A DNA stretch of 64,000 nt from a virus (lineage: Duplodnaviria; Caudoviricetes). The stretch lies in IMG/VR virus record IMGVR_UViG_2522572160_000003; one strand, 5' to 3'. The notes under the pieces are model-generated. The model searched no databases, was not told the origin of the DNA, and saw only the letters and a program-made list of their open reading frames with translations. The position numbers and the translations under genes are program-made. Numbering within the stretch: position 1 is the first letter of the stretch; every line of letters begins with the position of its first letter. Of the stretch, positions 1 through 27,537 are shown in pieces.

Positions 1-148
1 AAGTTTTTTGGAAAAATATGGATTTTACTGCGCTTTGAGTTACGTTCTCTAAAGAATTAAAATAGTTAAAACTGGAATAAACAACTAACAAGATGCCAAT
101 AGATAACAGTACAAACCTAATAACCTTTATATCGCCTAAACCAATCAT
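1..148 (-). CDS. Partial membrane protein, possibly a second ABC permease (runs off the window)
   Basis: ATG at 148 after GGAGGT; reads MIGLGDIKVIRFVLLSIGILLVVYSSFNYF... open to base 1; not in the ORF track. Confidence 0.55.
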   Translation of the reverse strand, partial: MIGLGDIKVIRFVLLSIGILLVVYSSFNYFNSLENVTQSAVKSIFFQKT

Positions 149-182
149 TGAGATACGACCTCCAGGTGGAGCAGCTCATGGA

Positions 183-1031
183 TCAAACGAGCATACTCCT
201 CTTTGACTCCCATGCATAAAGGCATGTGTCCAGAAAAATTTTTAATGGCATAATAACGAGGGCCATACTTAAAAGATATGTAAAAAACTGTGCATAAGAC
301 GCATCTTCCATAGCAAATCGCAAAAGGTCGCCAACGACCCCTCCCGCGGCATCGGTCTCCCCTTGCAATAAGTAATCAGTGAACACAGTAAAAGAGAACA
401 AGTATAAGAGCAAGGGGGACGTATTGCCCAGAAAAATCCAAAGCACTCTCTCTTTCAAGTAGTGAATTTTAGCCCCTCTCGGGCCAAGATATGAAGGCAG
501 TTTATAAGGAGCCGATACAACATACAATTTTTTATACTCAGTAACTATTTCAAAAACAAATGTATAGAGAAAAAAATATAAAAGTGCATTGGATAGTAAA
601 AGTGAAAGTGTTTTTGACCAAAAGATGCTTTCTCCAAACCAGGAATACAACGGGTCAACGTAACATACAATTGGTTTTGAACTGAAATATAAAAGACAAA
701 AAAAGCTCGCAATTCCGAACATCAATGAAATCCGGACATGTACTTTTTTTATTCCAATTGAGGCAAATATACCAATAAGAAATGCGACTATCCAAAATAT
801 TACAAAAGCCCAAAAAACATCCTGTAACGTCCGAAAAGCAGCTTTAAAAGCATCCCAAACCATATAAATATCTGCAGTTTTACTAATCACCGTTACAGTT
901 ACTAAAGATATCGCCATTATGCCTGTTGCCGCCACCTTCCACTTGCAATATTTCAAAGCTGCAAGTATATGCGGCAAGATGCTCAGAACATGTTGATCTG
1001 GCGCGTTATTTTTCAATTCTTCAACCTCCAT
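183..1031 (-). CDS. Multi-pass membrane protein, probable divergent ABC permease
   Basis: About six hydrophobic segments; overlaps the end of the substrate-binding protein gene. Confidence 0.55.
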   Translation of the reverse strand: MEVEELKNNAPDQHVLSILPHILAALKYCKWKVAATGIMAISLVTVTVISKTADIYMVWDAFKAAFRTLQDVFWAFVIFWIVAFLIGIFASIGIKKVHVRISLMFGIASFFCLLYFSSKPIVCYVDPLYSWFGESIFWSKTLSLLLSNALLYFFLYTFVFEIVTEYKKLYVVSAPYKLPSYLGPRGAKIHYLKERVLWIFLGNTSPLLLYLFSFTVFTDYLLQGETDAAGGVVGDLLRFAMEDASYAQFFTYLLSMALVIMPLKIFLDTCLYAWESKRSMLV

Positions 1032-2653
1032 GACCTAATATTGTAAAATGGCATTACTTTTCTTTCATCATTACATTCGCATTCCCTTTTTAAATTTACG
1101 TCGAACAGGTCTCTGCGTTTAAACCTGCCAACAACTGCTACGGGAAAGGTTTCTCCAACAATAATCCCAAATTTAGAAACCCCGTCAGTGCCACCGGCTA
1201 TGCATGCATCAATTTCATCTGACTCGACAACATCATTGGGAACTCCCAAAATATTAAGGGAGCTTCCGTCTTTTACAAACAACATGTATTTATGCCTAGA
1301 ACGTCCGTAAAAAAATATATCGAAATTCATATCAAATTCTTTTTCTTCAATGATGGAGTTGTAGCCCCTTCTTCCTGTCACTGGTGGTTCAAAGGAGAAA
1401 TTGACAATCCCTTCCCATATTTGATTTAGTTCCTCGGTCATTTTTTCAAAATCGTTTTTTTCGAAAGCATAGTCAATCTCTGGGGAATAATATATTTTTA
1501 TTTTGAGGTTTTTAACATCCCCATGTTTCTTTGCAAATTTTTGGGCTTCCTTTCTCGTTTCATGAAAAGAAGGTGCGTTCATTCCGTTCTTCTGATCAAA
1601 ACTTTCGTAAAGGAACACCCCTGGGGTAAGGTTTTCAACTTCATCACTTGATTCTTCTTGCCCTAGATTATCGTCAATCTTGATACCGCGCATTTTCCGT
1701 TTAATCGGTGAAAGATTCCAGACAGAATGTGTGAATATCGCTCTAAACTCTAAAGACAAAAAAAGATCCTCAAACTTTTCGCTATCATAATTGAAGCCGA
1801 TATAGGTAAAACTATCAAGGTCTGGAGAAGCTTTGAACTCGTAAATATCGGGTGACACGGGTAGGGTGCTGGGAACTGAGAGTATTACATTTGGTCGTCT
1901 CTTGACATCACTAAGGGTTGTGGTCATCTCTTTTCGGAGATCATAATAGTTGAATTTGACGTTAGAAATATTTGTTTTCTGAGGATCTCTGGATGAAAGA
2001 GAAAGTTTTCTTGAATCGATGTCGCTAATTTTGTAATACCCTCCTGTAGCTTTATTATATATATCAATTCCCCCTTTCCCTACGATCGTCTGCGAATAAA
2101 AATCATTTGAAGCACAACGAAGTATGGGAAAATCTAAAATATTCATTAACACCCACGATTGGGCGCTTTTTGTATAATCTGCATACAATCTATTCCCATC
2201 AACTCTGAAGCGAAGTGCATGGTAAGGATTTTTGGGAACTTGTTTGATTTGTTCAACTGTATACGCAACGTCATTTATGGATAGTGCTGTGCTCGCGCAA
2301 TTTGGACATTCATCATTGTTCAGGTCTAAAGTGAGAAAATTTGACCCATTTCGTGGTTCGTTTGCCTTCCCTTTGGCTTGGCAAATAGCACTACGTAAAA
2401 ATGCGTTTTCGGACTCCGGGTCATCCAAACAACTTCTTGCATACAAAGTTTCCGTAGTGAATTGATTTAACACAAAAGATGGGTAACTTGCGTATTGAAG
2501 TGGATTCCAATCTGATGTGTATTGTATGGTTGATATACTTAACTCTACAGAGTCATTTGGTTCTATACCCAGAGCGAAATCTCCCCCTATCAGCAATATA
2601 GTCAAAGTAACCATTACATTTATCGCCGTTGACCTCCAACAAGATCTTATCAT
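1013..2653 (-). CDS. ABC substrate-binding protein, family 5 (OppA/DppA-like), divergent
   Basis: Signal peptide; WNPL, 'LSINDVAYTV', 'TGGYYKI', 'YIGFNY', 'EFRAIF', 'KEFDM' echo SBP_bac_5 motifs; 546 aa. Confidence 0.65.
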   Translation of the reverse strand: MIRSCWRSTAINVMVTLTILLIGGDFALGIEPNDSVELSISTIQYTSDWNPLQYASYPSFVLNQFTTETLYARSCLDDPESENAFLRSAICQAKGKANEPRNGSNFLTLDLNNDECPNCASTALSINDVAYTVEQIKQVPKNPYHALRFRVDGNRLYADYTKSAQSWVLMNILDFPILRCASNDFYSQTIVGKGGIDIYNKATGGYYKISDIDSRKLSLSSRDPQKTNISNVKFNYYDLRKEMTTTLSDVKRRPNVILSVPSTLPVSPDIYEFKASPDLDSFTYIGFNYDSEKFEDLFLSLEFRAIFTHSVWNLSPIKRKMRGIKIDDNLGQEESSDEVENLTPGVFLYESFDQKNGMNAPSFHETRKEAQKFAKKHGDVKNLKIKIYYSPEIDYAFEKNDFEKMTEELNQIWEGIVNFSFEPPVTGRRGYNSIIEEKEFDMNFDIFFYGRSRHKYMLFVKDGSSLNILGVPNDVVESDEIDACIAGGTDGVSKFGIIVGETFPVAVVGRFKRRDLFDVNLKRECECNDERKVMPFYNIRSWRLKN

Positions 2654-2690
2654 AAGTTGTCTCCCAAGCTCCTTATATTGTATAAATCCC

Positions 2691-3650
2691 TCAATTATGC
2701 AATACCAGTTTACTTCTCCATAAAATATCTTCTAATTGCTGCAACTCAGGATATCTTTTTTTTAAGTCATCCCGCGGGTAAAAAAACTCCTGTAGCACCA
2801 ACCCAGGATTTCTAAAAGCAGCAAGCCGGGCATATTCCATATAGTAACAGGTGAAAAATTCAGATTTTTTTATCTCGAATGGTCGATTCCGCGGGTTCGC
2901 CAAGTATAAGTTAATTCCCCCAAAAGAATCCTCCGAGGAAAATTGATTATAGAATTCCCTTAAGTAAGGATTCGTAACTTCTGTTAGGGGCCATTCAACA
3001 CTCTTATCACAAACATTCAGGACGTTTGTAATGAAGTAAACCAGAAAATTGTGAATTTCGGCTTCCCTTCCTGTTGCATTAGCATCCAATATTGCAAGTT
3101 CAGAGCAGTATTTTTCATCAACAAGATTTTGAAGTTCGGCAATCGCTGGTTCTAATCGGCGTGGATCCTCCAAATGGAAATTAATTTCGGGGTTGTCATA
3201 TGGCTCTAAATAGTCGCCTTCAGAAGTGCTATCGATTATTGCCCGAGCATTGGCCACGTACAATTCAATCTTCTCTTTATCTTTGATACTTATTGCCTTC
3301 AAGTTGTGAGAACTATGCTCCACGATCTCAGTCTTTTCATTGAGATAGGCTTCAAGAACTTCGGCATGACACCGGACTAACAATTCATAAATAGTTTTTT
3401 TAACAAACAAATCAGTTATTTCCTGTGGAACATCTAATAGTTTAACATCGTCTACAGGATATGCTTTTTTAGAAATGTAAGATTCAGCATTATTCGCTCC
3501 GTGTTTTCCATCAGAGACAGTATTTGTAACTGAAGGACTTTCCTTTAAATTAAGACCTTTCTCAACATTCTGAAAGTGAATGACTATTGCGACAAGCAGT
3601 AGAGTAAACGTCGTAGTTGCAACTGCTATAAACCACGCTCCCCGCTTCAT
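2691..3650 (-). CDS. Membrane-anchored periplasmic protein, unknown function
   Basis: 319 aa; single N-terminal TM; 4-nt overlap with the upstream gene. Confidence 0.75.
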   Translation of the reverse strand: MKRGAWFIAVATTTFTLLLVAIVIHFQNVEKGLNLKESPSVTNTVSDGKHGANNAESYISKKAYPVDDVKLLDVPQEITDLFVKKTIYELLVRCHAEVLEAYLNEKTEIVEHSSHNLKAISIKDKEKIELYVANARAIIDSTSEGDYLEPYDNPEINFHLEDPRRLEPAIAELQNLVDEKYCSELAILDANATGREAEIHNFLVYFITNVLNVCDKSVEWPLTEVTNPYLREFYNQFSSEDSFGGINLYLANPRNRPFEIKKSEFFTCYYMEYARLAAFRNPGLVLQEFFYPRDDLKKRYPELQQLEDILWRSKLVLHN

Positions 3651-4963
3651 AATGTTTCCTCCAAAATTTTAAAAATCAGTATATTAGTAGAGGAACTGCT
3701 TGGCCTACCTTGCAACTTCTGCTTGACCGACGCTTGAACTGCCAGAAAATTCTCCCCCTTATAAGAAAATGGATACACCCAAGAAACATGATTAAGCGTT
3801 ATTAATGTCTCCCCATCGCTTTTCGCCCAAACTTGCTGGTATAAAAAATGATCGCTAATCCATTCCGCCCGTTTCTCTAATATTTCCTGGTCATTTCTTC
3901 CCTCAATATCGTCCAAACGGTTTCGAATTTTTTTGTAAGCATTGCAAACACTAAAGCTATTGGGAAATCCAAGCTCGTCTTCACTGCATTTAGGGCCACA
4001 TTTTATCCGAAACACCTTCAAACTGTCGCCCATCTTAGTAAAATATAATTCATCTCCAAGCCAAGCAAATGAATTGGGGTATAGAAAGTAATTATCAGCC
4101 CTGCAGTCATAGACATTTACGCGTGCAACAGTTTGCACGGGTTCTTTAAGATTCACGATATCATAAATGTATAATCCCCAGATATTGTTTTTGTCCACAT
4201 AGGCAACCGCCAAATACTCCCCAGATTGTGAAAATCTCGGGTAAAATATCGGATTTTCACTTTTCAGAACCCTCTGGCTTCCTTTTTCGTGAATACAAAC
4301 GCGGGGAAAGTTGTTTAAATCATGGTATGAAACAGCATACTTTTTCCCATCAGGATGCATGTCAAAATCAAAAAGACCTTCTGAGTTGTCAATTGTTTGT
4401 TTTTTCCCTTTTTGATCATACAAGTAATCATGACTAATAAAAGTAACCTTGTTTTTCGATTTCATCAATGTAACTGGTCTTTCATCTGAATTCATTATAG
4501 GCAAAGAAATCGGACGATTATCTGGAATACTTTTAAATATAAAATTATTGTCAACATCCTCCCAAAATATGGGTCCCCGAGAAAAAGAAACAAGCCTACC
4601 CGGAGAAGGGACTTGATCCAAAAAACTTACCTTCTCTTGATTGATTTTAATCTCAGGGTGAACCATAGCAGGCTCGAGGGCGCAAAAACCTGATTTGTCA
4701 GGCCCCATGACATGGTCTAAGTCATACGCAAAAAGCCTTCCTCCATCTGACGCCAAATCGATAAACATCAAGTAGTCGTCAGCAACAAAAGGGAATTTTA
4801 AACGGCCGCCTTCTGACAGCCAAGAAGGTGGAACGTTCTTTTTTGATACGTAACACCCAGTCTTGTACTCAACCTCAACTCCTATGGCATTGCCAGCGAA
4901 GACTGCTGCCATGAAGAAGACGAATAGCCCCCATTTAGACATTGCGTTGGAACATATCCTCAT
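3647..4963 (-). CDS. Exported TolB-like beta-propeller protein
   Basis: Signal peptide; PD40-type blades 'FDMHPDGKKYAVS', 'PRFSQSGEYLAV', 'FAWLGDELYF'. Confidence 0.65.
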   Translation of the reverse strand: MRICSNAMSKWGLFVFFMAAVFAGNAIGVEVEYKTGCYVSKKNVPPSWLSEGGRLKFPFVADDYLMFIDLASDGGRLFAYDLDHVMGPDKSGFCALEPAMVHPEIKINQEKVSFLDQVPSPGRLVSFSRGPIFWEDVDNNFIFKSIPDNRPISLPIMNSDERPVTLMKSKNKVTFISHDYLYDQKGKKQTIDNSEGLFDFDMHPDGKKYAVSYHDLNNFPRVCIHEKGSQRVLKSENPIFYPRFSQSGEYLAVAYVDKNNIWGLYIYDIVNLKEPVQTVARVNVYDCRADNYFLYPNSFAWLGDELYFTKMGDSLKVFRIKCGPKCSEDELGFPNSFSVCNAYKKIRNRLDDIEGRNDQEILEKRAEWISDHFLYQQVWAKSDGETLITLNHVSWVYPFSYKGENFLAVQASVKQKLQGRPSSSSTNILIFKILEETL

Positions 4964-4964
4964 G

Positions 4965-7900
4965 CTAAAAACCTCTCACAAATTCCACAGAGTTTGAATT
5001 GTTCGATTTTTCCCAATACAAAACCTTTTCTTTTTCACTATTATAAGTAAGAAGTCGAACATCTTTGATGGGAATTCGTTTATCAAAAATCTCGTCTTTG
5101 TATCCGTCGGTCTTAGTAACAATCCAAGATTTCGTTCTGTTGTTATAAAGGAACTTTAGATTTTGTACCTGAACCCTGCCCTTTTGTTCTGTGACTTCAT
5201 GGTTTACAATCAAGATAGATGATAAATTACGGAAATCTTTGTCCAAGGCTTTAATATAAATCTTGACATTTTCTGGAGCCACTGCCACAGCCTCATCAAA
5301 ATAGTTGGTCAAGTCAATTTCTCCTGGAATCGAAGAAATACGCCCCTCTACGTCAAAACGCGTTACAGTTGCTATATATCGGTAGGTCTTAGCTCCATTA
5401 CTAACACGTTGCAATCGCAGGAATCCCATGGCTAACCCTTTTGAATTGAAAAACGTGTCTGAAGACAGAACGGCATCACTGGAACCTTTCGAATGATATA
5501 AAATTTCTTCCTTGCAGCCACTGTTATTGGGCAAATAGGCGATACCCGCCCCTTTAGATAGACAGCACAATGAGTTCCCAAATTTTATGAGATTTACCCC
5601 ACCATCACTTGCGCTCTCATCCTTACTCGTTTGCCAATGCTCGGGTTTCAATAAATGAAGTTTATGGATTTCTTTTGGAGGCGCATCGGTATTCAAAACC
5701 TTTTCCAAAAGGCGAGCGGAACCCTTTGCTGAGAACAAACAGGCTAAATAGGAAGTGTCTGTAAACTCTATGGTTAACGCAACCAAATCTCCTTGCCTGC
5801 CGTCAAAACTAATTAGCTTCCACTCCATCTCCCTATGGGAAAAAGTTAGAACCTCGATAGGACTTATCTGGACTGCAAAATAATCAAGGGTCTCATCTCG
5901 CCCTCCAATGGTCGGCGCAGAATTCAATTTGATTGGAGTACCAACAAATTGCCCGTTGGTTTTGCAGCATGTTTGAAAGTAAAACGGTCCCGACTTCATT
6001 TCATCTTCAGGGCCCATCAGAATGTACATATATGGCGACTGCAATAACGGGCTAAAACAACTTATAATAACATTGCCTTGCATAGGACTGATACTTACTG
6101 TATTGGTAGTGTAACCTGAAAATACTTCATCATTTCCCTCCAATCTTTCAAACTCGCCAGAAAATAAATCGGTTAAATAGTAAATATATGGATTTCCAGC
6201 TTCTACGCACCGCAAGGATCCACCATTATTTTCATTAACTGTCAGCGTGACTGATAAGTCCTGTGTTCGTTCGAGTGCCAGCACCACTCCCTCTTTCTTA
6301 GATAAATCCGTTTTATGTTCAAAAGGTTCTGCGTGAAAACCCATCATTTCCAAAACCTTTTTTGCCAGGTCGGATTCAACGCCAATCAAATGAGGAAGTG
6401 GATGGTTTTGAACCACCAAATCGTTATCGCTCAATACAATTTCAAGGTAGTTCTCAAAATTGGAAATATTTCTCATCTTGTTCCTGTATTTGCTTGTTAC
6501 ATCAGTTTCTGTCAGAAACTTGGCAATCGAAGGCTCCCATCTAACTGGAATCACTTCAATTTCATTCATACCGGCAATGCAATCTATTTGATCTCCTAAA
6601 GAAAAAAGAGTATTGTTATATTTAATTCCAATTTCAACATCGGGAAATATTCCTTCTTTATTCGTCACAGTAAAACTTCGAGGTCTTTTTACCTCTTGAT
6701 TAACAATCAGGGTTAAACACTTGTCTTTATTGAATTTGCTGTCCAGCACTATTCCTTTCTCTTTTTTAGTTTCGTTGCTGTATGCAACTGAACAAATTTT
6801 GAACCCTAAAAGACCAGCCGCTTTTTGCGCATAATTTATGGTTTCTCCCTCAAAATTCGGTCGTATTGAATTTGATTCAATTTTAAGATCATTCGGCTCA
6901 AGATTGATTCGTTCTCCATTTTTGATGACTCCTATGTTTTTCTTAACCGCAGAGTACTTTTGTGTAACTGTATATTCTCGCATTGCACGGGCGACATCGT
7001 CAGTCCAAGCGACGGGTTTGACCTCAATAGATTTTACCTCTTCCACATATGGAATTTCTGCGTCTAAGTCATATGTCCCGCCATTGTATACCACCTTAAT
7101 CTCGACATCTTGCAAAATATATTTTGGCTTGGTGACTGAAAAGTGCTTTGGTTTAGCAACCTCAGGAAGGTCTACCACAAGAGTTGTTTTTCCTTGAGCA
7201 GCGCAAACGAGGGGCTTTATTTTTGCTTCAATATCGCCTTCTATCCCATTCCCGTATTTAATGCCCACATGAAGGTTTCTGCCATTTCTAACGTAATCAT
7301 TAATAAGCTCTACTTTTCCAGATTTTACTGTTTCTCCATTGACTACATTTCCCATATGCACATGGCCGATGCATTGATTTCCGTTCTTATCTGAATACAG
7401 AGAGACCGTGGCCTCCAAGCCGGAATCAATTAACGCGTCCGTCGACCTAATAAAAACAAAAGGAGATTTGTCTATGAATGGAAAATCACTTGGTAGATTG
7501 TTTACGCCTTCAAACATATTCGGGGAAGGGAATCGCTCCTTAACCCTCGCGACAAAATAATGCAAATTCAAAAGGTTGGGCTTGTAAGGTACGATAATAC
7601 CTCTTGCTGCATCCCAAAAACGCTCTTCCTTAGCCTGGCCGTTGGCTGTTGTATAAAGCCCTAAATGACTGCCTTTATTATATTTAATGTAGCCCTCTTC
7701 ATTTCCGGCCCCCATCTCCCCTACGCCATAACACCCATGTGCAATCAATAAAGACTGTGCTCCTCTATCGCGGATAGTCTTATCAATATGGAGGTTCAAC
7801 TCATCAATATTTAAAAGATCAACAAACTCACCGTTTGGAAGCACCTTAACATTACTTGTAAGCATTGCATTTTTTATCGCGTGGGAATGGGTATAAATAA

Positions 7901-8264: not shown

Positions 8265-8277
8265 TTTAAACCCCCAA

Positions 8278-9759
8278 CTACCTAAAATTTATAGGTTTTG
8301 AAACGGCCAAAACACTTAGACCACCGTTACTAATTTCCCTGGTGATAAAATTAACACACTCGTTGTCACCATTGAGGCATGAAACCTGAAACCTATGCTC
8401 CAAAAGATAGACTTTGAAGAACATATCAGATGGCGGCTTTACGCCCGCTTTTCCCCAATCAATGGTCAGGGTTTTTTTCTGGAACTTATCAATATAGGAA
8501 TCGTTGTGGCGTATTAGCGGATAGGGGTAATCAGGTTCATTTCCATAATCAACTTCTAGTAAAACGTACCCCTCATGGCTGGACTCCACTTCCAAAGAAA
8601 TTTTGTCATCTAAAAATCTTTTTGAAACAATGTTAATTGCTGGCTTTGACTGTTTATTATCTACCCAATAAATTTGGGACAAACAGTCAAACTCATCTCT
8701 TTTACCCAAGATAACTTTACCGTTTACTCGTTCCACCGAATGAAAGTTTACTATTAATCCCAAGGCCTCTAACTCACTATTACTTCTTATAATATCGCCT
8801 CTTTTCACCAACATTGCGTGAGTGGCTGTTGCCGGCGCAAAAACGGCTTCACCATTATACAATTCGTTAAAAATTTTCCATGTTTCCACTCTGGGAATAA
8901 CTGAAACTTTGGTTCCCATACCAAAGAGATTGATCGCGTTCTCAATGTGATCAGGTAACTTAGATTTAATGTTTTCAGGCAATGATTCATCTATAATCAT
9001 ATCCAAAACCAACGGCCGCTCTGGATTTACAGCGTTATACCTACACAATAATGCAACGCCCATTATTCTTCCCAAAGATGCAGCATCGGCTGCTGGAGAG
9101 TCAGGGTAGCCTGAAATAAATTGGTAATCGCCTAACTTCCTTCCGCCATCTTTTGCGTAAAACTTATCGACGTTTCGATATTTTTCAGCCTTGAGAATTT
9201 TCTCGATTACACATGCTGCAGTATCAAAAGCTCCCTCTGCATTCCTTATCACCACTGTCAGTTTAACATCCTCATCGCTTTCACCGACATGGATATATCC
9301 AATGGATCTGGGCGCAGTTCTGCAAGGAAGTTGAGGTTTAATTCCTGGAGGGGGTTGAACATAATAGACAATATCGGTGTTCCCAAAAACATATGGAAGC
9401 ACACCTTCGGCACCATCAGTTGTCTTTTGCGCCTCAATCATTCCGCTTTCCAATTGCTTTCTGAGGCCATTCATTAACGTTGTCGTCTTTCCATAAGGAA
9501 TGCTAGGATAATCAGGGTTAGCAATAAGCAATAAAACCGGCAGGATATTCTCTGCCTTACAAACATCATATATTTCCTGGGCGCATTCCTGAATTTGTTC
9601 TTGATCGTCCTTCCTGCATTGCCTTTCTTTTGAAGAGATGCTGGAATCCCCGGAAAGGGAGGCACAGCCTGAAACAAATAGGCATAAAGCCATCATAAAT
9701 ACTGCGCACATCATGGTAGCCAAGCATTCTTTTACCTTATGACTTTTTTTGAATTGCAT
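8278..9759 (-). CDS. Lipoprotein, possible C-terminal DUF4384-like domain
   Basis: Lipobox FVSGC; C-terminal 'DKISLEVESSHEGYVLLEVDYG..YPL'. Confidence 0.6.
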   Translation of the reverse strand: MQFKKSHKVKECLATMMCAVFMMALCLFVSGCASLSGDSSISSKERQCRKDDQEQIQECAQEIYDVCKAENILPVLLLIANPDYPSIPYGKTTTLMNGLRKQLESGMIEAQKTTDGAEGVLPYVFGNTDIVYYVQPPPGIKPQLPCRTAPRSIGYIHVGESDEDVKLTVVIRNAEGAFDTAACVIEKILKAEKYRNVDKFYAKDGGRKLGDYQFISGYPDSPAADAASLGRIMGVALLCRYNAVNPERPLVLDMIIDESLPENIKSKLPDHIENAINLFGMGTKVSVIPRVETWKIFNELYNGEAVFAPATATHAMLVKRGDIIRSNSELEALGLIVNFHSVERVNGKVILGKRDEFDCLSQIYWVDNKQSKPAINIVSKRFLDDKISLEVESSHEGYVLLEVDYGNEPDYPYPLIRHNDSYIDKFQKKTLTIDWGKAGVKPPSDMFFKVYLLEHRFQVSCLNGDNECVNFITREISNGGLSVLAVSKPINFR

Positions 9760-9899
9760 GTCCTCCCTCCCTGCATGCCAACTATACTATTAACGCGAAA
9801 GATCAGCTGTAACAGTTGAGTACTTGTTACACTCAGCAGAAGTCGCTTCTTCCAAATATAAACAAAACAGACACTACCCAAAATTACTGTTCATAGGTA

Positions 9900-10559
9900 T
9901 TATAATTGATAATTCTGGTAAAACTCCAAACGCTCCTCGTCATTCTCAAAAATCTTAAAACTGGAAATGCTGTTAAGAGCTTTAATCATGTCCCTTAATT
10001 GGGGGGTAATGTCTAAATTGGGCGTGCCATTTTTCTTGATGACCTCAAGCATGTCTTTTCCTATAATAATTTTAACGTTGCTTTTAACTCTTGAACGCAA
10101 TGCATCAGAGATATTATTAGGATAGGTGTTGGCTTCAGGCCCCACGATTCCGGTATGGATCGGAATGTTCAAAACGACTCCTTTGTCGAAGACAATTTGC
10201 CCGGAAAAATCGTATTCCACTTTTCCTTCCCAATGTTTGGCGGTTTCGCCGTGGTAGGTGGTTGTCTTTTCAACTAATTCCTTTTCATCGAATTTTCCAG
10301 TCAGCTTTACCTCGAGAAGATCTAAATCCGAATTTTGCTTGTCTAATTCCCCCCTTAATTCCTCCGCGATTTCTTTTCCTATCTGGGAAATTACACTGTC
10401 TGGGTCCATGTCAAACCCGCCATGATTCAGGATGGGTTCCGTTTCGGCGCCTTTCATAGAGGAGGCCTTTTGCAGCGGGTCATTGGCATTAGTCGATTGA
10501 ACCGCAATGATCATAAATGCTGAAATTAACAGTGATGTGATAAGTCTCATTTTGGTCAT
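9900..10559 (-). CDS. Exported hypothetical protein
   Basis: Start trimmed to MTKMRLITSLL (signal peptide), just after the SLT stop. Confidence 0.7.
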   Translation of the reverse strand: MTKMRLITSLLISAFMIIAVQSTNANDPLQKASSMKGAETEPILNHGGFDMDPDSVISQIGKEIAEELRGELDKQNSDLDLLEVKLTGKFDEKELVEKTTTYHGETAKHWEGKVEYDFSGQIVFDKGVVLNIPIHTGIVGPEANTYPNNISDALRSRVKSNVKIIIGKDMLEVIKKNGTPNLDITPQLRDMIKALNSISSFKIFENDEERLEFYQNYQL

Positions 10560-10561
10560 TC

Positions 10562-11320
10562 CTATGCAGAAAAGCCGTAGTCCTTTTTTAAAATGGTTGC
10601 ATGCCGTAGGATGCGTTGGCAATAAACGTCCGGATCAATGGTTGTAGACCCATCTGTATAGTATATTTTACGCACGACCTTCTGGCCCTTAACGCCCTCC
10701 CTCCCTCTGTAGTAATATTGCAGGGCCATGCACCAGTCTTCATTTACTGATTTATCAAAATGTTGTTTTGGGTAGTCCTTAACTGACAAATCAAATTGCT
10801 TGCTTAGATAGTAGGCTCCTGCCATTATAGCCGTTTCCGGGTTGTTTCGGTTATCCCCAATATCTATGCCCCTTTCTTCTAACTCACATTGGATCTCCGT
10901 AAAAGTGGAATCTATAATTTGAGTCAGACCCTTGGCGGAAGACAATGGTTTTCCATTTTTGCCAATGGGAACGGCCTCAGGCCTACCTGAGGATTCCTGA
11001 TATATCAACCCGGCGATGATAGAAGGGGGGACTTTAAAGGTACGGGCAGCTTGCCAAACTTCTTTTTTGTATGGCACTACTGCTTTGGATATTATTTCCT
11101 TGTATTCTTTGGTGACGTTTTCAATGGGGCCGGTTTCGTTCTTGATGGAGTAATCTCTTTTATAAATCATCTCCCAGACCTCAAGATGTTTGCTGGCCTC
11201 CTTTAAAAGTTTCAATCCCTCTGACGCCGCAGCCATTCCGGAAAATATTATTGCCAGAATAATGAGCCAGCCCACACTATTTCCGAAATGTAAGATAAGT
11301 CGAGTTTTAATTTTACTCAT
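10562..11320 (-). CDS. Lytic transglycosylase (SLT domain)
   Basis: IAGLIYQESSG (catalytic Glu), SSAKGLTQI, NPETAIMAGAYYL, ALQYY; N-terminal signal/TM. Confidence 0.92.
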   Translation of the reverse strand: MSKIKTRLILHFGNSVGWLIILAIIFSGMAAASEGLKLLKEASKHLEVWEMIYKRDYSIKNETGPIENVTKEYKEIISKAVVPYKKEVWQAARTFKVPPSIIAGLIYQESSGRPEAVPIGKNGKPLSSAKGLTQIIDSTFTEIQCELEERGIDIGDNRNNPETAIMAGAYYLSKQFDLSVKDYPKQHFDKSVNEDWCMALQYYYRGREGVKGQKVVRKIYYTDGSTTIDPDVYCQRILRHATILKKDYGFSA

Positions 11321-11335
11321 TTCATATCCTGTTTC

Positions 11336-11788
11336 TCACTTACTTTCCACAAATTGAACAGATACTCCGCATCTGTTTAATCTCCCAGTCAAATCCACGG
11401 CGTCCACTCCTGATATGGATTCGTCAGTAATGAGCACAAAAGCGGTAACATCCTCCTCTTTTACGCTGTCCGCATCATTAAGGGCTTTTCGCAGCCCGGA
11501 GAGATCTGAATCATTCAGCCAAAAATGATCACCGTGAAATAATAATTCCACCTTTCCGCTACGTTTTACCGTTTTTACCACTAAAGATTTATCAACAACC
11601 TTATTCGGATCAAGTATAGCGTTGGCTTCAACAGGGATGGCCGGCACCCCGCCGCCCCCGGGATGGATAGTCATTAAGGCAAATGAAAAAAGCAGCATAA
11701 CCATGAATAAATAGGCGAACAGGTCCTTGCCGGGATCCTGCAGCGCCAAAAAAGGATCTTCCCGCCTGCAGCCGAATCGCCTACCCAT
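11336..11788 (-). CDS. ExbD/TolR-like proton-channel partner subunit
   Basis: Single TM 'DLFAYLFMVMLLFSF' with conserved Asp; small C-terminal domain 'VLITDESISGVDAVDLTGRLNRCGV'; start 11788 after GAGGAG, overlapping the ExbB-like stop. Confidence 0.7.
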   Translation of the reverse strand: MGRRFGCRREDPFLALQDPGKDLFAYLFMVMLLFSFALMTIHPGGGGVPAIPVEANAILDPNKVVDKSLVVKTVKRSGKVELLFHGDHFWLNDSDLSGLRKALNDADSVKEEDVTAFVLITDESISGVDAVDLTGRLNRCGVSVQFVESK

Positions 11789-12377
11789 TATTTTTCTCCT
11801 CAAAAGCGGGATCTGGGTTTGCATCCGCTTCCATAAGGCATTTTAATAGGGAAGAGATTCTATGATTAATTTTTTTTTCAAATGCTTTGAGCCTTGGTTG
11901 TGTCCTTACAGCAAGAAAAAAGATAATAACGGCGCCTATAGCTGAGCTTAATAGTGACGTCAATAGAGCCGTGTTCAACCCCCCCTCAAAAGCCTGCGAA
12001 ATAGCTTGCGTCGCTACCACATTCTGAGTGCTCAACGCCTTAGTCATCTCCTGAAACGCAAAAATGGTTCCATAGATCGTCCCAAAAAAACCCAAAAGAA
12101 TGGCTGAATTGACTACGCCGCCAATGCTGGCGACCTGGCTTGATATTTCAGTCTCATATTCCAACCACACCTGGTCAACGCAAGAATCCACCCATGATTG
12201 ATGATAGTTTACGCCTGGCTCAATGGGCAATAAGTCATCGATCCATGTCATGTCTTCTCTGGCTCTCAATTCGCCCCACACCTTGATTATTTTATATAAG
12301 ATTGCTATTGCCAAGCATACAAAAAGCAATACGAAAACCAGATCAAGGCTTTTGTATAGTTCAGACGGCGTCATCAC
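11781..12377 (-). CDS. MotA/TolQ/ExbB proton channel family protein
   Basis: Three TMs; LLGFFGTIYGTIFAF and GLNTALLTSLLS family motifs. Confidence 0.9.
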   Translation of the reverse strand: MMTPSELYKSLDLVFVLLFVCLAIAILYKIIKVWGELRAREDMTWIDDLLPIEPGVNYHQSWVDSCVDQVWLEYETEISSQVASIGGVVNSAILLGFFGTIYGTIFAFQEMTKALSTQNVVATQAISQAFEGGLNTALLTSLLSSAIGAVIIFFLAVRTQPRLKAFEKKINHRISSLLKCLMEADANPDPAFEEKNNG

Positions 12378-12551
12378 TTTCTACTTTCATTGTCTGTTGG
12401 ACTAAGAGCGCTCTCAAAAAATCAATATGCACTTTAAGGACAATGCGTTGAGTTTGAATCCCAACCCCAAAGGGATATTCACTCTCGTATTAAAGGCACC
12501 GATTTAAGGCGAGCTTTCTGAAAATAAAACTCTTGGTTCTGTTTTTGAAAC

Positions 12552-13283
12552 TTAAAGTCTGTTTACTATTTCGGGGTCAATGATTGTTTTATCCACTTGA
12601 GTGGGCGCATAACTGAGCCAAGCAAAAACCTGATCAATTCTGGAAACCATTTCATCAGGTACTAAGCCCATTTTTTCATTCTTTCTGTAGAGTTTCACTG
12701 CATCACTGCTTAAAAAGTCTAACTTTTCCTTGACAAACGAAGTACTGCCTGTAAAAGAGTCCACTTTAAACGATGGCGGATACTTGATGTTTTCTCTGAT
12801 TCTGTCGATTAACAAATCCACGCGCCCTATCCTGTCCTCCCATTTGCCGGCAGTTGAGTTGCTCAGTTCTTCAAATTCATCCTCTACGATTTGCTGGTCA
12901 GACGTCAACAACAGTTGAGCTTCCTCAGCAGTCATTTCATTGGCGACCAGTTCTTTTTCATATTTGCGCTTTACCAGCATTTTCTCAACCGCAAGTTGCT
13001 TTCTAAGCGTTGCTTCATAATCCTTGTAAACAATGGACTTATTGGCATGATAAACGGCTTCTTTGCAATCATTAAAGATGGAATCCTGCACAAGAAGGCT
13101 AATAATTTCTTTGTTGCTGATTTTGCTTGATTCTTCGTCAATCTCACGTTTAAGTTCCTTATTGCTTTCCTCATAGGATCCTGCAGAAGATTCCCCCACT
13201 TGAAAAGCCACTGCTAAAACCAATAACACACAAAAAACTATTCTATAATGGCGCATAATTATCTCCCTTACAAGATTACTCAT
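12552..13283 (-). CDS. Exported coiled-coil protein
   Basis: Signal peptide; E/K-rich helical sequence. Confidence 0.75.
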   Translation of the reverse strand: MSNLVREIIMRHYRIVFCVLLVLAVAFQVGESSAGSYEESNKELKREIDEESSKISNKEIISLLVQDSIFNDCKEAVYHANKSIVYKDYEATLRKQLAVEKMLVKRKYEKELVANEMTAEEAQLLLTSDQQIVEDEFEELSNSTAGKWEDRIGRVDLLIDRIRENIKYPPSFKVDSFTGSTSFVKEKLDFLSSDAVKLYRKNEKMGLVPDEMVSRIDQVFAWLSYAPTQVDKTIIDPEIVNRL

Positions 13284-13315
13284 CTAAGATGCCATTGTTA
13301 TTGCCAAAAAGCCCT

Positions 13316-14326
13316 CTAATCCAAAGTTAACCCTTTGTAGCGGGCCAATCTTTCATCGTTGCTTTCTCCAACATTGATGTTGGGCATTCCGCTTGGATTG
13401 TTTTTGTACTTTTCATCTAGTATACGTAAAGATTCCAAGCCTTCGTCTCTCATTAGCTTGTTCACATTATCCATTGCGGCTCCTGTTTTATCCATAGCTA
13501 AACTGAGATTCCTAAAAGCTATTATGCCTTCACGGAAAGACTTTGAGGCTATAATCATATCATCGCTGAAAGCCCCTGTATTCACCTGAGAAAACTTACG
13601 AAATAAGCGAATAAAATGACTATGGAACTTATCAGCGGCAGGGAGAAAACTATTTTTCATCAACAAGGCATTATCCTTCATTACCTTGTTGAATTGTTCA
13701 AGAAACTCGTTCTCCACTTTCATACTTTCATAGCTGACAATAATATTTTCAATTCTATCAAACTTTCTATCTATCGTATTTTGTAGCCTCGCCTTGCAGG
13801 AATCATTCCTACATCCTTTTTGTTCGTTAATAAGCCGTTTAATTTCTTTTTCTAAGGCTTCCTTGCCGCGAACCAGTTCACGACGCCTCTGTGGGATTTC
13901 GGCGTTCATTCCCCGCTCGGAAATGGCTTCAATCTCATCCACCCCTCTAATTACCATTTCTTTCAAGCTATTGACATTTTCAGTGGTGGATGAGGCATTC
14001 TTTGCCAAAGGGGAGTTCAACTTCACCACCGCAAGTCTAATTTTTAATGTGAGATTTTTACTCAAATCTTCAGGAACCTGGCCGTTGTAGCGGGATTCTG
14101 CCTCTTCCCATTCATTAATTATCTTGTCAATTTCAGTTTTGAATTCAACCATAGCCTTGGCAACTCCGTCTAACCCACTAACTGCATCCCCAGTAGCGTC
14201 TGTTATCCCCTTGATAGTTGTCACGGCTTGGTGAATGGATTCTTCCGTGGTGACTGCATGGCAAACAGGCGAAAACACCACTCCCATGAGCAGGATTGCC
14301 AAAAGAACTTTCCGTATTACTAACAT
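13316..14326 (-). CDS. Exported long coiled-coil protein
   Basis: Signal peptide (VCHA|V); heptad-like helices; CRNDSC at a probable hairpin tip; GGAGG RBS. Confidence 0.78.
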   Translation of the reverse strand: MLVIRKVLLAILLMGVVFSPVCHAVTTEESIHQAVTTIKGITDATGDAVSGLDGVAKAMVEFKTEIDKIINEWEEAESRYNGQVPEDLSKNLTLKIRLAVVKLNSPLAKNASSTTENVNSLKEMVIRGVDEIEAISERGMNAEIPQRRRELVRGKEALEKEIKRLINEQKGCRNDSCKARLQNTIDRKFDRIENIIVSYESMKVENEFLEQFNKVMKDNALLMKNSFLPAADKFHSHFIRLFRKFSQVNTGAFSDDMIIASKSFREGIIAFRNLSLAMDKTGAAMDNVNKLMRDEGLESLRILDEKYKNNPSGMPNINVGESNDERLARYKGLTLD

Positions 14327-14367
14327 GCCTTCCTCCTTGATTAGTGGAAATATGGGCCTTTTACTAT

Positions 14368-14874
14368 TTATTGCTGCACATAACCAGGATCAACCTTTTT
14401 CAACAGGCGTTTAGAGCAAAGCTCAACTTTTTTAGCCCGTCCGTCCATAGTTGAAAGGCTCCAGTCATAGATCGCGCGAAGAAACTCTTGGTCAGCCGCC
14501 CTCAGTTTCAATCTACCACCGGCTTGAGAATCTTCAATATTTGAAAAATATTGACATGAGGCCGCTACAAAATTCTCCATTTGGCTTTCCTTGTTAAAAG
14601 CCTTGATCGCTTCCACAAGCACGTCGTTGTCAACCCTCCGGTTGGCGTCAAGAATCTTGACAATCATAGCCATTCTGGCATCCGCATACCTGGAGTTGTC
14701 TTTAGTTTCGCGGAAAAACCTGTCAATTTCGGAATTTGACAACTCTGATACCGGCATAGTTTGCATTTGATCTACCGTCAAAGGGGCCGCCGATGGTTGG
14801 GGAGATTTTTCAACACACCCCGCCAATGATAAAGCCATAAGAACTGCTGCAATAATTGTCATCTTTCTCCTCAT
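14368..14874 (-). CDS. Lipoprotein, helical
   Basis: Lipobox LAGC. Confidence 0.8.
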   Translation of the reverse strand: MRRKMTIIAAVLMALSLAGCVEKSPQPSAAPLTVDQMQTMPVSELSNSEIDRFFRETKDNSRYADARMAMIVKILDANRRVDNDVLVEAIKAFNKESQMENFVAASCQYFSNIEDSQAGGRLKLRAADQEFLRAIYDWSLSTMDGRAKKVELCSKRLLKKVDPGYVQQ

Positions 14875-14930
14875 AGTATCTCCCCTTTCTGACCTTCTAC
14901 ATTGGGTGCTATAGTAAAAACGCCTATTAA

Positions 14931-16073
14931 CTATTTAACCTGTACTATGCCCTTTTCTATGAAAAACGCTGCATCAGGATCCTGATTTATTAAGTCGCCG
15001 GGCAACAATTTCCAACCCTGTCCATCATCATAATACAACGGTATGATAAACGCTTGGCCCCTGGAGTCCACACCTGCATTTGAAGTCAAACGCCCGGCCG
15101 CCATTCTTACGGATAACATGCAATTAGGGGAATTCCTTTGGGACGTATGCCACTTTCGTACTGCATTTAATTTATTAAAAAAATAGCCGCAGTATTGTTT
15201 AGGAACAACGTAGTAGACGCGCTCAATTTTGCTTGAGCCAACTTCCTTGGAATACTTTTTTCGCCAAGCACGTAGTTCCTCTTCATGGTCATCCACGCAA
15301 GCCTCAATTTTAATCGGATACACAGCATCCAACTCGTCATCTTGAACCCAATCAAAATCACGAAAAGAACTCTTTATAAAAATACCGCCGTTGCTTGAAA
15401 TCAGCGCCAACTTCATATTCAAATAGGGATAAAGAGTTTTTAACATGTATCCTCTCGAATTTTTTATCTCCCAGGAAACATTCCCATCCCCGTCCCAGGA
15501 GGCGCTGTTAAGATCGTTGTGCAAAGAAAAAAAATCGTTTTCTATGCTCTCCGAGGTTTCAACTCCCTGTACGGATGTGAGCGTTTCAAAAGCAGACGTC
15601 TTTTCCTCCTCCTTTTGATTTTCTTGCTCCTGCACTTCTTCTTTCTGGGGATCTGGCTTCATTTCGGGCTTAGCGTCATCACTGTCAGCATGTTCGTCAG
15701 CTGATTCCCCTGCAGTCTGAGTTTCCTCTTCCTGCGGGCTTTCATCCTTCTCAATTCGTTTATCCGATTCCACCCCCAACGTGGTGGTTTCATCCATTGC
15801 ACCATCCGGCTTTTCACTCAGTTGTTCTGCACCGACATCTTTCGTATCTTTGGCCGCATTGGAATTATGATCTGTAGGTGTATTTGGAGAAGAGGGGGTT
15901 GGAGGCGTCGAACCGGGAAAAGGCTTTCCTGTCTCAACATATCCTGAAGAATCATCTGATTTTCCCCCGCCAACCAGGGGTGCGGCCATCTGCCATAAAA
16001 AGAGAATTATAGCCAAAATGACAACCGCAATCAGCAGGTAATTCAATTCCTTTCTCAACTTGTCCCTTTGCAT
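14931..16073 (-). CDS. Single-pass membrane protein with a Pro/acidic disordered linker and globular C-terminus (TonB/TolA-like architecture)
   Basis: N-terminal TM; ~130-aa low-complexity P/S/E/D/K linker; folded C-terminal ~200 aa. Confidence 0.75.
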   Translation of the reverse strand: MQRDKLRKELNYLLIAVVILAIILFLWQMAAPLVGGGKSDDSSGYVETGKPFPGSTPPTPSSPNTPTDHNSNAAKDTKDVGAEQLSEKPDGAMDETTTLGVESDKRIEKDESPQEEETQTAGESADEHADSDDAKPEMKPDPQKEEVQEQENQKEEEKTSAFETLTSVQGVETSESIENDFFSLHNDLNSASWDGDGNVSWEIKNSRGYMLKTLYPYLNMKLALISSNGGIFIKSSFRDFDWVQDDELDAVYPIKIEACVDDHEEELRAWRKKYSKEVGSSKIERVYYVVPKQYCGYFFNKLNAVRKWHTSQRNSPNCMLSVRMAAGRLTSNAGVDSRGQAFIIPLYYDDGQGWKLLPGDLINQDPDAAFFIEKGIVQVK

Positions 16074-17732: not shown

Positions 17733-17809
17733 CCTATTGCTAACCATTATATCAAAGGTTTTTTGGGAAAAATAAACGTCGGGGGCAACGGATAAATTCG
17801 GGAGATCCT

Positions 17810-22989: not shown

Positions 22990-23440
22990 TTAATCTCCTT
23001 CCATTGGGTTACGCCACATCCGTCCAAAACCGATTGTGTATCCAGCAGAACAGATTGAGCGTTGCAATCGCTCAATTTCCTTGTCAAGTTTGTACGCCAA
23101 TTGTTTGGATTATTGATCAATAAATACCACGCACAAAATATTCTGGCAAGCTCTGACATGAACTATGCGCCATGTCTTTTCATGGGCCCATTATTCGCCA
23201 ATGCAATTTTTAACAAAACTTATAGAGAAATAAATGTATTATGGAGGAGATGATTCTCAACAATAGGACGCTATTGTATTAAATTAGCTCCAATCCATTA
23301 CAAGAGACCGCATTCTCCAATGCGGTTTCTTGCTTTAAGGGGCCGAACAATCCCTATTCCAATCACTCCGTCTTTCCCCTATTCCACTCATCCCGAGTGA
23401 ATCCGTGATCCCAAACAATTCAAACCAAAGGAGTTTGCCT

Positions 23441-25290: not shown

Positions 25291-25298
25291 GGACAATC

Positions 25299-25496: not shown

Positions 25497-25509
25497 AAAG
25501 GAAAACATT

Positions 25510-26373: not shown

Positions 26374-26430
26374 TTCCAAAGCGCATCCGATGCGTTTTCC
26401 ATACCTTATTAATAAGCAAAGGAGAAAACT

Positions 26431-26769: not shown

Positions 26770-26783
26770 CAAGGAGGTGAACC

Positions 26784-27449: not shown

Positions 27450-27537
27450 CCCAACCCACAACCTTTTGCACCATCGGGGCGCTAAAAAAATGGGCGCACC
27501 GGATAGGTGCGTCCATGCCCCGAAAAGGGGATTATCA

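Follow-up and report, generated by a model that had tools for sequence, protein, structure and literature searches.

A minus-strand gene array on a genomic island with a conserved seven-gene core resembling Ton/Tol-type envelope motors

The window, the whole 64,000-nt stretch of DNA that was analyzed, carries 14 co-oriented genes on the minus strand between positions 183 and 16073 (Table 1), with the ORFs located where an earlier sequence-only reading had put them. At least 15 co-oriented genes had been counted in that reading, and a fifteenth is represented by its first 49 codons at the window edge, but the genes do not constitute one 15-gene machine. The array extends ~11 kb beyond the window start to a total of 19 genes, all of which have open and full-length frames. 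Intergenic gaps ranged from -61 to +174 nt, were tight (-19 to +37 nt) from g09 to a gene for an 810-aa protein, and ribosome-binding sites of good quality were found upstream of many genes. In agreement with the signal peptide, lipobox, or TM segment claimed for every gene, an N-terminal hydrophobic segment was found in every array product of the window by a crude hydropathy scan, by which alone signal peptides were judged, and lipoboxes were found in g02 and g09. The proposed island setting was also borne out by the GC content (0.38-0.45 across the array in the window and ~40% for the island, compared with 0.544 for the genome) and by an integrase gene in the window. Neighboring genes included an L,D-transpeptidase near the array, as well as a helicase-restriction fusion and NucS-like genes on the island.

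Table 1. Genes of the array and the integrase in the window (L006, L014, and L015 are related loci; f95 is a family in the same phylum).
Gene	Product	Position	Strand	Observation
g01	arm, 380 aa (core)	14931..16073	-	12-aa cytoplasmic tip, TM 13-31, 154-aa linker, ~195-aa C-terminal domain
g02	lipoprotein, 168 aa, lipobox LAGC (core)	14368..14874	-	homologues in L006 (37.5%), L014, L015, f95 loci
g03	exported helical protein, 336 aa, conserved CxxxxC (core)	13316..14326	-	39% identity, full length, to L006 (E 4e-82)
g04	exported protein, 243 aa (core)	12552..13283	-	35% identity to L006
g05	ExbB/TolQ-like motor A subunit, 198 aa, 3 TM (core)	11781..12377	-	Pfam MotA_ExbB E 1.6e-5
g06	ExbD/TolR-like B subunit, 162 aa (core)	11336..11824	-	one TM, then ~100-aa periplasmic domain; DPGKD alignment
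g07	lytic transglycosylase (SLT), 252 aa (core)	10562..11320	-	Pfam SLT E 4.5e-13
g08	exported protein, 240 aa as listed	9900..10622	-	C-terminal 140 residues 24% identical to L006 331-aa protein (E 4e-8)
g09	lipoprotein, 493 aa, lipobox VSGC	8278..9759	-	24% identity to L006 585-aa lipoprotein (E 4e-18)
g10	exported protein, 1099 aa	4965..8264	-	candidate clan-CD N-terminal domain, duplicated module, strand-rich C-terminal half
g11	exported protein, 438 aa	3647..4963	-	two PD40-like motifs, residues 203 and 245
g12	N-terminally anchored protein, 319 aa	2691..3650	-	hydropathy scan; family searches without match
g13	very divergent family-5 substrate-binding protein, 546 aa	1013..2653	-	ESM Atlas features and structure
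g14	polytopic membrane protein, 282 aa	183..1031	-	five hydrophobic segments; no Pfam match
g15	start (49 codons) of 407-aa permease, rest off window	1..148	-	start at 148 behind GGAGG
	integrase	33280-34602		

The first seven genes form a core block composed of a TM-linker-globular arm, a lipoprotein, two exported helical proteins, an ExbB-like protein, an ExbD-like protein, and an SLT. The ExbB-like label of g05 was confirmed by a Pfam score above the cutoff (25.1 versus 22.9 bits), together with NCBIfam matches to ExbB (7.9e-5) and TolQ (5.6e-4). Its GFxGT and TALxTS motifs and the Gly/Thr motifs of TM2 and TM3 were conserved in the alignment, while its relatives were rare, with 27 matches at E<1e-3 among 1.84 billion representatives. 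The ExbD-like label of g06 held for size, position, topology, and an invariant DPGKD that opens the TM segment and includes a TM aspartate. However, no Pfam or NCBIfam match to ExbD was obtained, and homology to the three canonical ExbD/TolR proteins of the genome was not detectable (hhalign probability 1%). At E 1e-5, the profile of the g06 family matched five of 401 genomes of the phylum and zero canonical ExbD proteins. The true start of g06 is probably M13, giving 150 aa. The SLT assignment of g07 was upheld, with the ES (catalytic Glu) and GLxQ motifs kept in nine of nine aligned loci, and its top NCBIfam matches were machine-associated transglycosylases (flagellar BB0259 and T3SS IagB).

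The linker of the arm g01 is rich in E/S/D/T/P/K, and its C-terminal domain was conserved in L006 (32%, E 1e-40), L007, L014, L015, L016, and the f95 loci. This domain was modeled by AF2 with a pLDDT of 78 and a pTM of 0.75, for which no PDB match and no solved fold resembling the model were found. A TM segment, a K/E/P/A-rich linker of 100-298 aa, and a conserved end domain make up the arm in all loci, and in subtype B of the core and on short contigs its gene immediately precedes that of the ExbB-like protein. The TM segment of g01 has no conserved His, and the His/SHLS motor-contact motif of TonB/TolA is absent, which leaves analogy and gene adjacency as the only basis for a putative coupling of the arm to the motor. 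Among the other core proteins, g02 was related between the two subtypes (hhalign probability 98%), and the C-terminal 75 residues of g04 were common to subtype B (hhalign probability 83%, E 9e-6). The g03 family included only two proteins, g03 and its L006 counterpart, in a search of 5.8 billion clusters, and no homology was detectable between g03 and the same-sized exported protein at the same position in subtype B. Similarly, homologues of g08 and g09 were not detectable in subtype B.

The nearest relative, L006, contains nine genes (the core and the next two) in the same order with identities of 24-49%. Further copies of the core were found in L014 (a Deltaproteobacteria MAG), L015, L016, a 25.6-kb JGI contig, and four f95 genomes, and the seven-gene block was present in every related locus, including the metagenome contigs. 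Homologues of the upstream half of the array are thus co-located in other genomes, contrary to the scattering that would have refuted the sequence-only reading. Among the 20 f95 genomes profiled, the ExbD-like profile was found in 11, compared with zero of seven in the sister family. The f95 core is chromosomal, and in the four loci inspected it stands alone among housekeeping genes without effector or cargo genes. Exported proteases of other kinds (C14, S8) were carried by two relatives, namely a C14-PEGA protein in L014 and a subtilisin on the JGI contig, and SH3b lipoproteins in relatives add to a cell-wall theme. Homologues of g10, g11, g12, and the importer genes were found in none of the related loci for which DNA was compared.

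A regulatory module accompanies the core in several relatives. Divergent from the f95 core lie genes for a protein with Sigma70 regions 2, 3, and 4 (E 2e-6 to 4e-8), for one with an HxxxCxxC motif, and for a TM protein that resembles Lon_C. In L006, zf-HC2 and Lon_C are fused to the arm, and L012 has an adjacent FlgM. This sigma, anti-sigma, and Lon-like module was not found in the present genome.

Downstream of the core, the start of g08 is more likely the ATG at 10559, which gives 219 aa and a plain signal peptide; its L006 counterpart has a faint PASTA match (E 0.024). No family or PDB match was found for g09. For g10, which had been read as a caspase/PASTA protein, Pfam, NCBIfam, and PDB matches were absent. 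Its ESM features pointed to C14/C13 clusters (0.93) and HSH and AHGC motifs occur 50 residues apart, such that a caspase/legumain-like (clan CD) N-terminal domain is possible and serves as a lead only. The PASTA label was not supported: no family match was obtained even at E 10, and only an internal duplication of a ~150-aa module was present (residues 371-523 and 526-678, 31% identity, E 4e-24). The AF2 model of g10 was unusable (pLDDT 32), and a homologue was absent from 40 relatives and from the related loci. The TolB-like label of g11 was likewise not supported: beyond the two PD40-like motifs, there was no PDB match and no family match even at E 10. In contrast to the silence of Pfam, and with no PDB sequence match, the family-5 label of g13 was supported by structure (TM 0.70/0.74 across 458 residues, the matched cluster consisting 100% of SBP_bac_5) and by an ESM Atlas feature score of 0.98. 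From its neighbors, g14 is presumed to be an ABC permease, and g15 has a weak BPD_transp_1 match (E 0.005). On the contig, g15 is followed by a 601-aa fused double ABC ATPase (ABC_tran 9e-26; top NCBIfam matches of the NikE/OppD/DppD types) and exported proteins of 810, 1124, and 774 aa, the last two being helical-repeat paralogues. A DxSGS motif, the one motif behind a vWA-like reading, was found in a protein downstream of the core.

Taken together, window positions 8278-16073 are more likely than not a horizontally acquired copy of a rare and undescribed Ton/Tol-like envelope system. The g05 and g06 proteins, the latter with its invariant Asp at the TM start, would form a proton-driven inner-membrane motor of the 5:2 type. 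Anchored beside this motor by one helix, g01 would span the periplasm on its long, charged, Pro-rich linker, and its end domain may exert a pull on, or act as a sensor for, a component of the wall or outer membrane. Local cutting of glycan strands by g07 would allow the assembly to span or remodel the sacculus, while the lipoprotein g02 and the exported g03 and g04 would make up the periplasmic and outer part. Control of the block in relatives would fall to its own sigma factor, together with a zinc-finger anti-sigma protein and a Lon-like protein of the membrane. The genes from g10 to that of the 774-aa protein would be genome-specific add-ons, putatively co-transcribed with the core, that encode a candidate exported cysteine protease, an Opp-type importer, and vWA-like and helical-repeat proteins.

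Similarly to Ton (ExbB-ExbD-TonB), the core places an ExbB-family protein and a small single-pass partner with an Asp at the TM start in adjacent genes with a third protein that has an N-terminal anchor, a long charged and Pro-rich linker, and a globular end. Unlike in Ton, the partner is not recognizable as ExbD, the arm lacks both the SHLS/His motif and a TonB_C match, an SLT is an obligatory neighbor, as are a lipoprotein and two exported helical proteins, and relatives of the core have a dedicated sigma/anti-sigma pair. In line with the sequence-only reading, Pfam, NCBIfam, and PADLOC searches of the array and contig genes gave no signature of a TonB-dependent receptor, Pal, or ZorC/D/E. 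A motor with a spanning arm, a lipoprotein, exported helical proteins, and peptidoglycan ties are shared with Tol-Pal (TolQ-TolR-TolA-TolB-Pal-CpoB). However, there were no family matches to TolA, TolB_N/PD40, OmpA-type Pal, or CpoB, the core operon encodes a lytic transglycosylase, and the core is patchy and partly mobile where Tol-Pal is universal. The vWA-type transducers, defined via gene neighborhood, likewise have a TolA-like topology and are partners of TolQ-like motors without being TonB or TolA (Williams-Jones et al. 2025, PMC12204202). Each of their arms retains the SHLS/His motif or a transpore helix and terminates in a vWA fold (PMC12204202), whereas the core arm has neither feature and an end domain that fits no solved fold. 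The motor-centered set, conserved elsewhere, fits no named system, as had been proposed.

Other explanations were weighed against these data. A role in surface transport or secretion, in which the motor would carry exported proteases, vWA-like adhesins, and giant helical-repeat proteins across or along the envelope, or set them free, as in Agl-Glt/Nfs or TonB-dependent protease export, is unlikely. The Agl-Glt/Nfs systems of Myxococcus comprise 11-17 genes, with a TolQR-type motor, TonB-shaped proteins (one with an N-terminal zinc-binding domain), lipoproteins, and large helical periplasmic proteins, and Glt includes a vWA adhesin. In overall architecture, the core would resemble them in its motor, TonB-shaped protein, lipoprotein, and helical periplasmic proteins, and the recurrence of exported proteases beside the core, the DxSGS protein and helical-repeat paralogues here, the lipoprotein of L014 with FlgO/CsgG/LpoB-like and DUF4384 parts, and the resemblance of the SLT to secretion and flagellar enzymes all agree with such a role. 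However, the core has seven genes, no outer-membrane barrel, channel, or receptor was recognized here, Pfam and NCBIfam returned zero matches to components of Glt/Nfs, T2SS-T9SS, or curli, and the minimal f95 version lacks cargo. A Zorya-like envelope immunity, with the motor sensing wall breach or distortion by a phage or predator and triggering lineage-specific exported effectors (the caspase-like protein here, the C14-PEGA protein in L014, and the subtilisin on the JGI contig), is decidedly unlikely. It draws on a divergent MotA/ExbB-type motor on mobile DNA beside the helicase-restriction and NucS-like genes, weak PADLOC matches of g05 to ZorA (7.7e-5) and of g03 to the ZorA tail (1.5e-4), a rare and patchy distribution, and a conserved core with swapped proteases. 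In contrast to ZorA (~700 aa), g05 has no long cytoplasmic tail, and g03 carries a signal peptide and is hence periplasmic. The ZorB wall-binding domain and ZorC/D/E/F/G were not found (PADLOC), all partners are exported, as are the candidate effectors, which sets the latter apart from known abortive-infection proteases, the four f95 cores are surrounded by housekeeping genes, and no match to the cluster was found among 50,697 records of phages and 72,556 of plasmids.

The single machine proposed earlier, which would open peptidoglycan, cleave peptides with the caspase-like enzyme, and import the products through an Opp-type transporter to scavenge or recycle wall material, is very unlikely, despite the tight spacing from g09 onward, the co-occurrence of SLT, candidate protease, family-5 binding protein, and NikE/Opp-type ATPase in one strand run, and the nearby L,D-transpeptidase gene. 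The protease, g11, g12, and importer are missing from every related locus, and the shift in GC from 0.40-0.45 in the core to 0.32-0.40 downstream points to a mosaic origin of the array. A motor-protease-importer link, drawn only from tight gene spacing in this one genome, was not supported. That the cluster is a silent or decaying passenger on the island, severed from its sigma factor, is the least probable explanation: the regulatory module is missing here and the cluster was not found in two same-genus genomes (g10 as query; one of them also with the ExbD-like profile), but every frame is intact, as are the catalytic and motor residues, and good ribosome-binding sites are in place.

For the favored reading of a Ton/Tol-like envelope system, a published survey offers a precedent in TolQR-like motors that pair with non-TonB transducers, and it shows that more systems of this kind are still to be discovered (PMC12204202). 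The anti-sigma and Lon-like parts fused to the arm of L006 suggest that the core machine also reports the state of the envelope to transcription.

The cluster lies on a large foreign island, as indicated by its low GC content and an integrase gene. The window corresponds to contig C9 32001-96000. GC was 38-47% across window positions 1-24000, compared with 54.4% for the genome, and the low GC runs on to the start of contig C9. As described in the sequence-only reading, the genes form a co-oriented array, all on the minus strand, with a spacing of -61 to +174 nt and plausible ribosome-binding sites at many of them. The array extends past the window edge and comprises 19 genes (g01-g19 in transcription order, from the 380-aa g01 to the 774-aa g19) over approximately 27 kb in total. 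The proposal that every product is exported or membrane-bound was borne out to the extent that a crude hydropathy scan found an N-terminal hydrophobic segment in each; two of them, of 168 aa and 493 aa, also carry a lipobox. Promoter and terminator scans gave no signal above shuffled expectation, and no tRNA or Rfam element was found in the window. Among the sequencing runs listed as containing this DNA, none was of RNA, and the sole other run was from a sludge metagenome, in which the share was 5%.

Features of the array, its island, and related loci. L002 and L003 are stretches of contig C9 before the window start, with local coordinates; L014 is a related locus, and f95 is the family in which the core was also found.
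Feature	Location	Strand or setting
Integrase	window 33280-34602	
407-aa permease	start at window position 148	
601-aa fused double ABC ATPase, then exported proteins of 810, 1124, and 774 aa	contig C9, beyond the window edge	follow the permease
1124-aa and 774-aa paralogues	L002 8778-14567 (C9 20778-26567)	
Metallophosphoesterase-like ORF; YkuD L,D-transpeptidase (E 4.8e-5)	window 17124-18682	plus strand, divergent from g01
AAA ATPase and UvrD-type helicase in a GC-rich (54-56%) block	window 23405-30436	within the island
Ros/MucR-type regulator (E 2e-33) adjoining a gene for a 381-aa protein that weakly matches NucS-like nucleases	L002 5570-7208	flanked by the envelope array and the radical SAM genes
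Five radical SAM genes (two SPASM, one B12-binding), metallo-beta-lactamase-fold gene, family-2 glycosyltransferase	L002 1-5170 and L003 8856-11338 (C9 8856-17170)	upstream of the window, same island
Fusion protein (1159 aa) of an AAA_11/AAA_12 helicase and an MTES_1575/DUF559 restriction-type nuclease domain; 553-aa coiled-coil protein; DUF6933 protein	L003 417-6803	contig end
Genes for a Peptidase_C14-PEGA protein and a 715-aa lipoprotein, interspersed among those of the core	L014 11534-17159	
249-aa sigma factor, regions 2, 3, and 4		divergent from core in f95 genomes
192-aa protein, HxxxCxxC anti-sigma motif		divergent from core in f95 genomes
451-aa membrane protein, Lon-like Ser motif		divergent from core in f95 genomes

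Several neighbors on the island were also noted. The radical SAM gene group has the appearance of a cluster of the RiPP or sugar-modification type, and the helicase-nuclease locus at the contig end has a defense-island-like content. The metallophosphoesterase-like ORF was recognized by eye (GHEA...GDF...GHTHG) and had no Pfam match, while the YkuD protein is another wall enzyme adjoining the cluster.

Related loci were reached by following matches of the ExbB-like protein g05. Subtype A is represented by L006, an 18-kb metagenome contig on which homologues of g01-g09 keep their order at 24-49% identity. Subtype B includes L014 (a Deltaproteobacteria MAG), the JGI contigs L015 and L016, a 25.6-kb JGI contig represented by its gene list, and several short contigs. 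It keeps the g02 lipoprotein, an exported protein of about 350 aa, g04, a g01-type arm, the ExbB-like and ExbD-like proteins, and the SLT. Homology between the two subtypes was detectable for the g01 end domain, g02, the g04 C-terminus, g05, g06, and g07; hhalign did not connect g03, g08, or g09 with the subtype B proteins that occupy the same positions. For g03, a profile search of genome contigs with its alignment found no relative, a word-indexed search added none, and plasmid records gave no match. Several of the alignments were thin.

A profile of the ExbD-like family, specific in that canonical ExbD was not matched at an E-value of 1e-5, detected the system in four of 400 further genomes from the phylum, each belonging to one family (f95). 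Within the same order, it detected the system in 11 of the 20 genomes of this family and in none of the seven from its sister family, and the system was not found by this profile in a genome of the same genus. In the four f95 loci inspected, the seven-gene core (lipoprotein g02, exported proteins in the g03 and g04 positions, arm g01, the ExbB-like/ExbD-like pair g05/g06, and SLT g07) has a housekeeping neighborhood, and two of the loci also carry an SH3b lipoprotein. In contrast to this core, no homologue of g10-g19, which encode the caspase-like protein, g11, g12, the importer, and three large exported proteins, was found in the related loci with DNA compared, and the GC content of the array falls from the core towards the downstream genes. 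Hence, the array earlier read as one 15-gene unit is by sequence comparison a mosaic: a conserved core stands, joined by g08 and g09 in common with L006, and the remainder is genome-specific cargo packed tightly behind it.

The motor label of g05 was upheld at the level of the MotA/ExbB family (PF01618, E-value 1.6e-5, 25.1 bits versus a cutoff of 22.9). Its NCBIfam match to the ExbB model TIGR02797 (E-value 7.9e-5) falls far under the equivalog cutoff, and in that collection it lies no nearer to ExbB than, roughly, to TolQ; the match establishes membership of the superfamily but not ExbB orthology. The protein is very isolated: a word-indexed search of 5.8 billion clusters found one close relative, on a 664-bp contig, 27 matches at an E-value below 1e-3 were obtained among 1.84 billion representatives, and plasmid and phage records gave no match. 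For g06, the size, position, and topology are as expected of the ExbD-like protein proposed, but a family match is absent. It did not match PF02472 (ExbD/TolR) even at an E-value of 10, and it had no profile similarity to the three canonical ExbD/TolR proteins of the genome (hhalign probability 1%). An invariant DPGKD motif, with its Asp, was found where the TM helix of g06 begins. The SLT identity of g07 was confirmed by PF01464 (E-value 4.5e-13), and its ES motif, carrying the catalytic Glu, and GLxQ motif are conserved in all nine homologues or loci aligned.

The common plan of g01 and eight relatives is a single TM helix, a K/E/P/A-rich linker of 100-298 aa, and an end domain of about 195 aa. 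A recent survey used the SHLS/His motif as the hallmark of TonB/TolA-type coupling and also described vWA-ended arms beside TolQR-like motors (PMC12204202). A conserved His in or beside the TM helix, and with it the SHLS motif, was absent across the nine arm proteins, and g01 is therefore TonB/TolA-shaped but lacks a defining feature of membership. No Pfam or NCBIfam match to a TonB C-terminal domain was found in g01. A fair AF2 model of its end domain was obtained from a six-sequence alignment (pLDDT 78, pTM 0.75). It had no PDB match (best Foldseek E-value 0.07, best VIA Z 3.4), and none of the hits was TonB or TolA. PDB sequence searches with profiles of g01 and g09 returned nothing usable.

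Downstream of the core, g13 was verified as a family-5 SBP, a very divergent one, by ESM Atlas features (0.98) and by structure (TM 0.70/0.74 over 458 residues to SBP_bac_5). The fused ABC ATPase had its best matches to NikE, OppD, and DppD, i.e., the Nik/Opp/Dpp type; one permease had a weak BPD_transp_1 match (E-value 0.005), and the other was assigned by topology only. Together, g13, the two permeases, and the ATPase have the components of an Opp/Dpp-type ABC importer. The caspase suggested for g10 is favored by ESM features (0.93 to C14/C13 clusters) and by HSH and AHGC motifs 50 residues apart, but no Pfam match was found, and this reading of the sequence may be taken only as a lead. A BLAST comparison of g10 with the true C14 protein of L014 was not significant, g10 was not found among 40 relatives, and an AF2 model of its whole 1,099 aa from a single sequence had a pLDDT of 32. 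Two further labels had no support from family models. PASTA domains in g10 gave no PF03793 match at an E-value of 10, although most matches weaker than about 0.1 are discarded by the filters of HMMER, and the TolB-like g11 had no family match, only two PD40-like motifs. The internal duplication of g10 is real (E-value 4e-24), and a 331-aa protein of L006 had a faint PASTA match (E-value 0.024). PDB sequence searches with g10, g11, and g13 returned nothing usable. Additionally, the 1124-aa and 774-aa paralogues share 24% identity over about 560 residues and have a helical-repeat look; in the 810-aa protein upstream of them, a DxSGS motif directly behind the signal segment is a hint of a vWA domain.

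Regulatory genes accompany the core in its relatives. Besides the three divergent genes of the f95 genomes, both L006 and L014 start with a sigma-like protein (a weak region-4 match) and a Lon_C-like protein; L006 has zf-HC2 and Lon_C parts fused to the arm, and FlgM adjoins the cluster on one short contig. No counterpart of the sigma, anti-sigma, and Lon-like genes was found in the genome carrying the array.

Proton-driven 5:2 motors power flagella, Ton uptake, Tol-Pal division, gliding, type 9 secretion, and Zorya, and to our knowledge each new set of motor partners has revealed a new way in which bacteria supply power to an envelope with no energy source of its own. In contrast to all of these systems, the family described here has an arm without the TonB/TolA contact motif whose end domain has an unmatched predicted fold, its own wall-cutting enzyme, a private sigma/anti-sigma/Lon-like control module in relatives, and different exported proteases recruited in different lineages. 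None of the known systems tested feature by feature fits; the comparison with Glt/Nfs was one of general architecture. TonB_dep_Rec and Plug domains had no match in the 19 cluster proteins or the scanned proteins of the relatives, and no TolB_N/PD40, OmpA-like Pal lipoprotein, or CpoB was matched in Pfam and NCBIfam, which cover sequence families only. A flagellar relic, for which the FlgM beside one relative, the sigma region 3, and the flagellar best match of the SLT would speak, was considered and dropped in view of the ExbB-type motor and the lack of any flagellar gene. A module for conjugative type IV secretion was likewise dropped: no VirB4/VirD4 ATPase or relaxase was found among the scanned island ORFs, so the ICE mating-pair cluster that the sequence-only reading had named as a contrary identity was not recovered. 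In f95 genomes, mobile genes do not accompany the core, and plasmid records gave no match. No account of the gene set turned up in the literature on ExbB/ExbD in combination with transglycosylase, caspase, anti-sigma, and Lon.

The best-supported reading of the core is a Ton/Tol-like system that has not been described before. In it, the ExbB-type motor and its Asp-bearing partner would drive, or be gated by, the periplasm-spanning arm, and the dedicated transglycosylase would reshape the wall or let the assembly through. The lipoprotein and the exported helical proteins would complete the complex, and in relatives the machine may be wired to its own sigma factor. Zorya-like envelope immunity is a possible but weaker reading: the ZorA matches returned by PADLOC were weak (7.7e-5 and 1.5e-4), and there was none to ZorB, ZorC/D, E, or F/G; ZorA has a long C-terminal tail, whereas g05 is just 198 aa. 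Protein transport similar to Glt/Nfs, a likeness that may hold by architecture, is possible at the same lower standing, as is the original model in which the wall is cut, a substrate cleaved, and the products imported. A weaker form of that model survives, since the relatives also have exported proteases adjoining the core: the C14-PEGA protein of L014 (E-value 3e-45), interleaved with the core as is the lipoprotein with a FlgO/CsgG/LpoB-like domain and DUF4384, and a 1037-aa subtilisin beside the core on the 25.6-kb contig.

The undescribed Ton/Tol-like core, with its seven genes and clear point-mutation targets (the Asp of g06 and the Glu of the SLT), makes function directly testable, and the island copy shows a module that moves between genomes and picks up cargo. 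In a more speculative and rather improbable extension, the core would be a portable periplasmic surveillance device, whose motor continuously tests the wall through the new arm and whose response to a breach is a private sigma signal together with lineage-specific exported proteases. If true, it would represent an envelope-level immune or anti-predation system with its effectors outside the cytoplasm.
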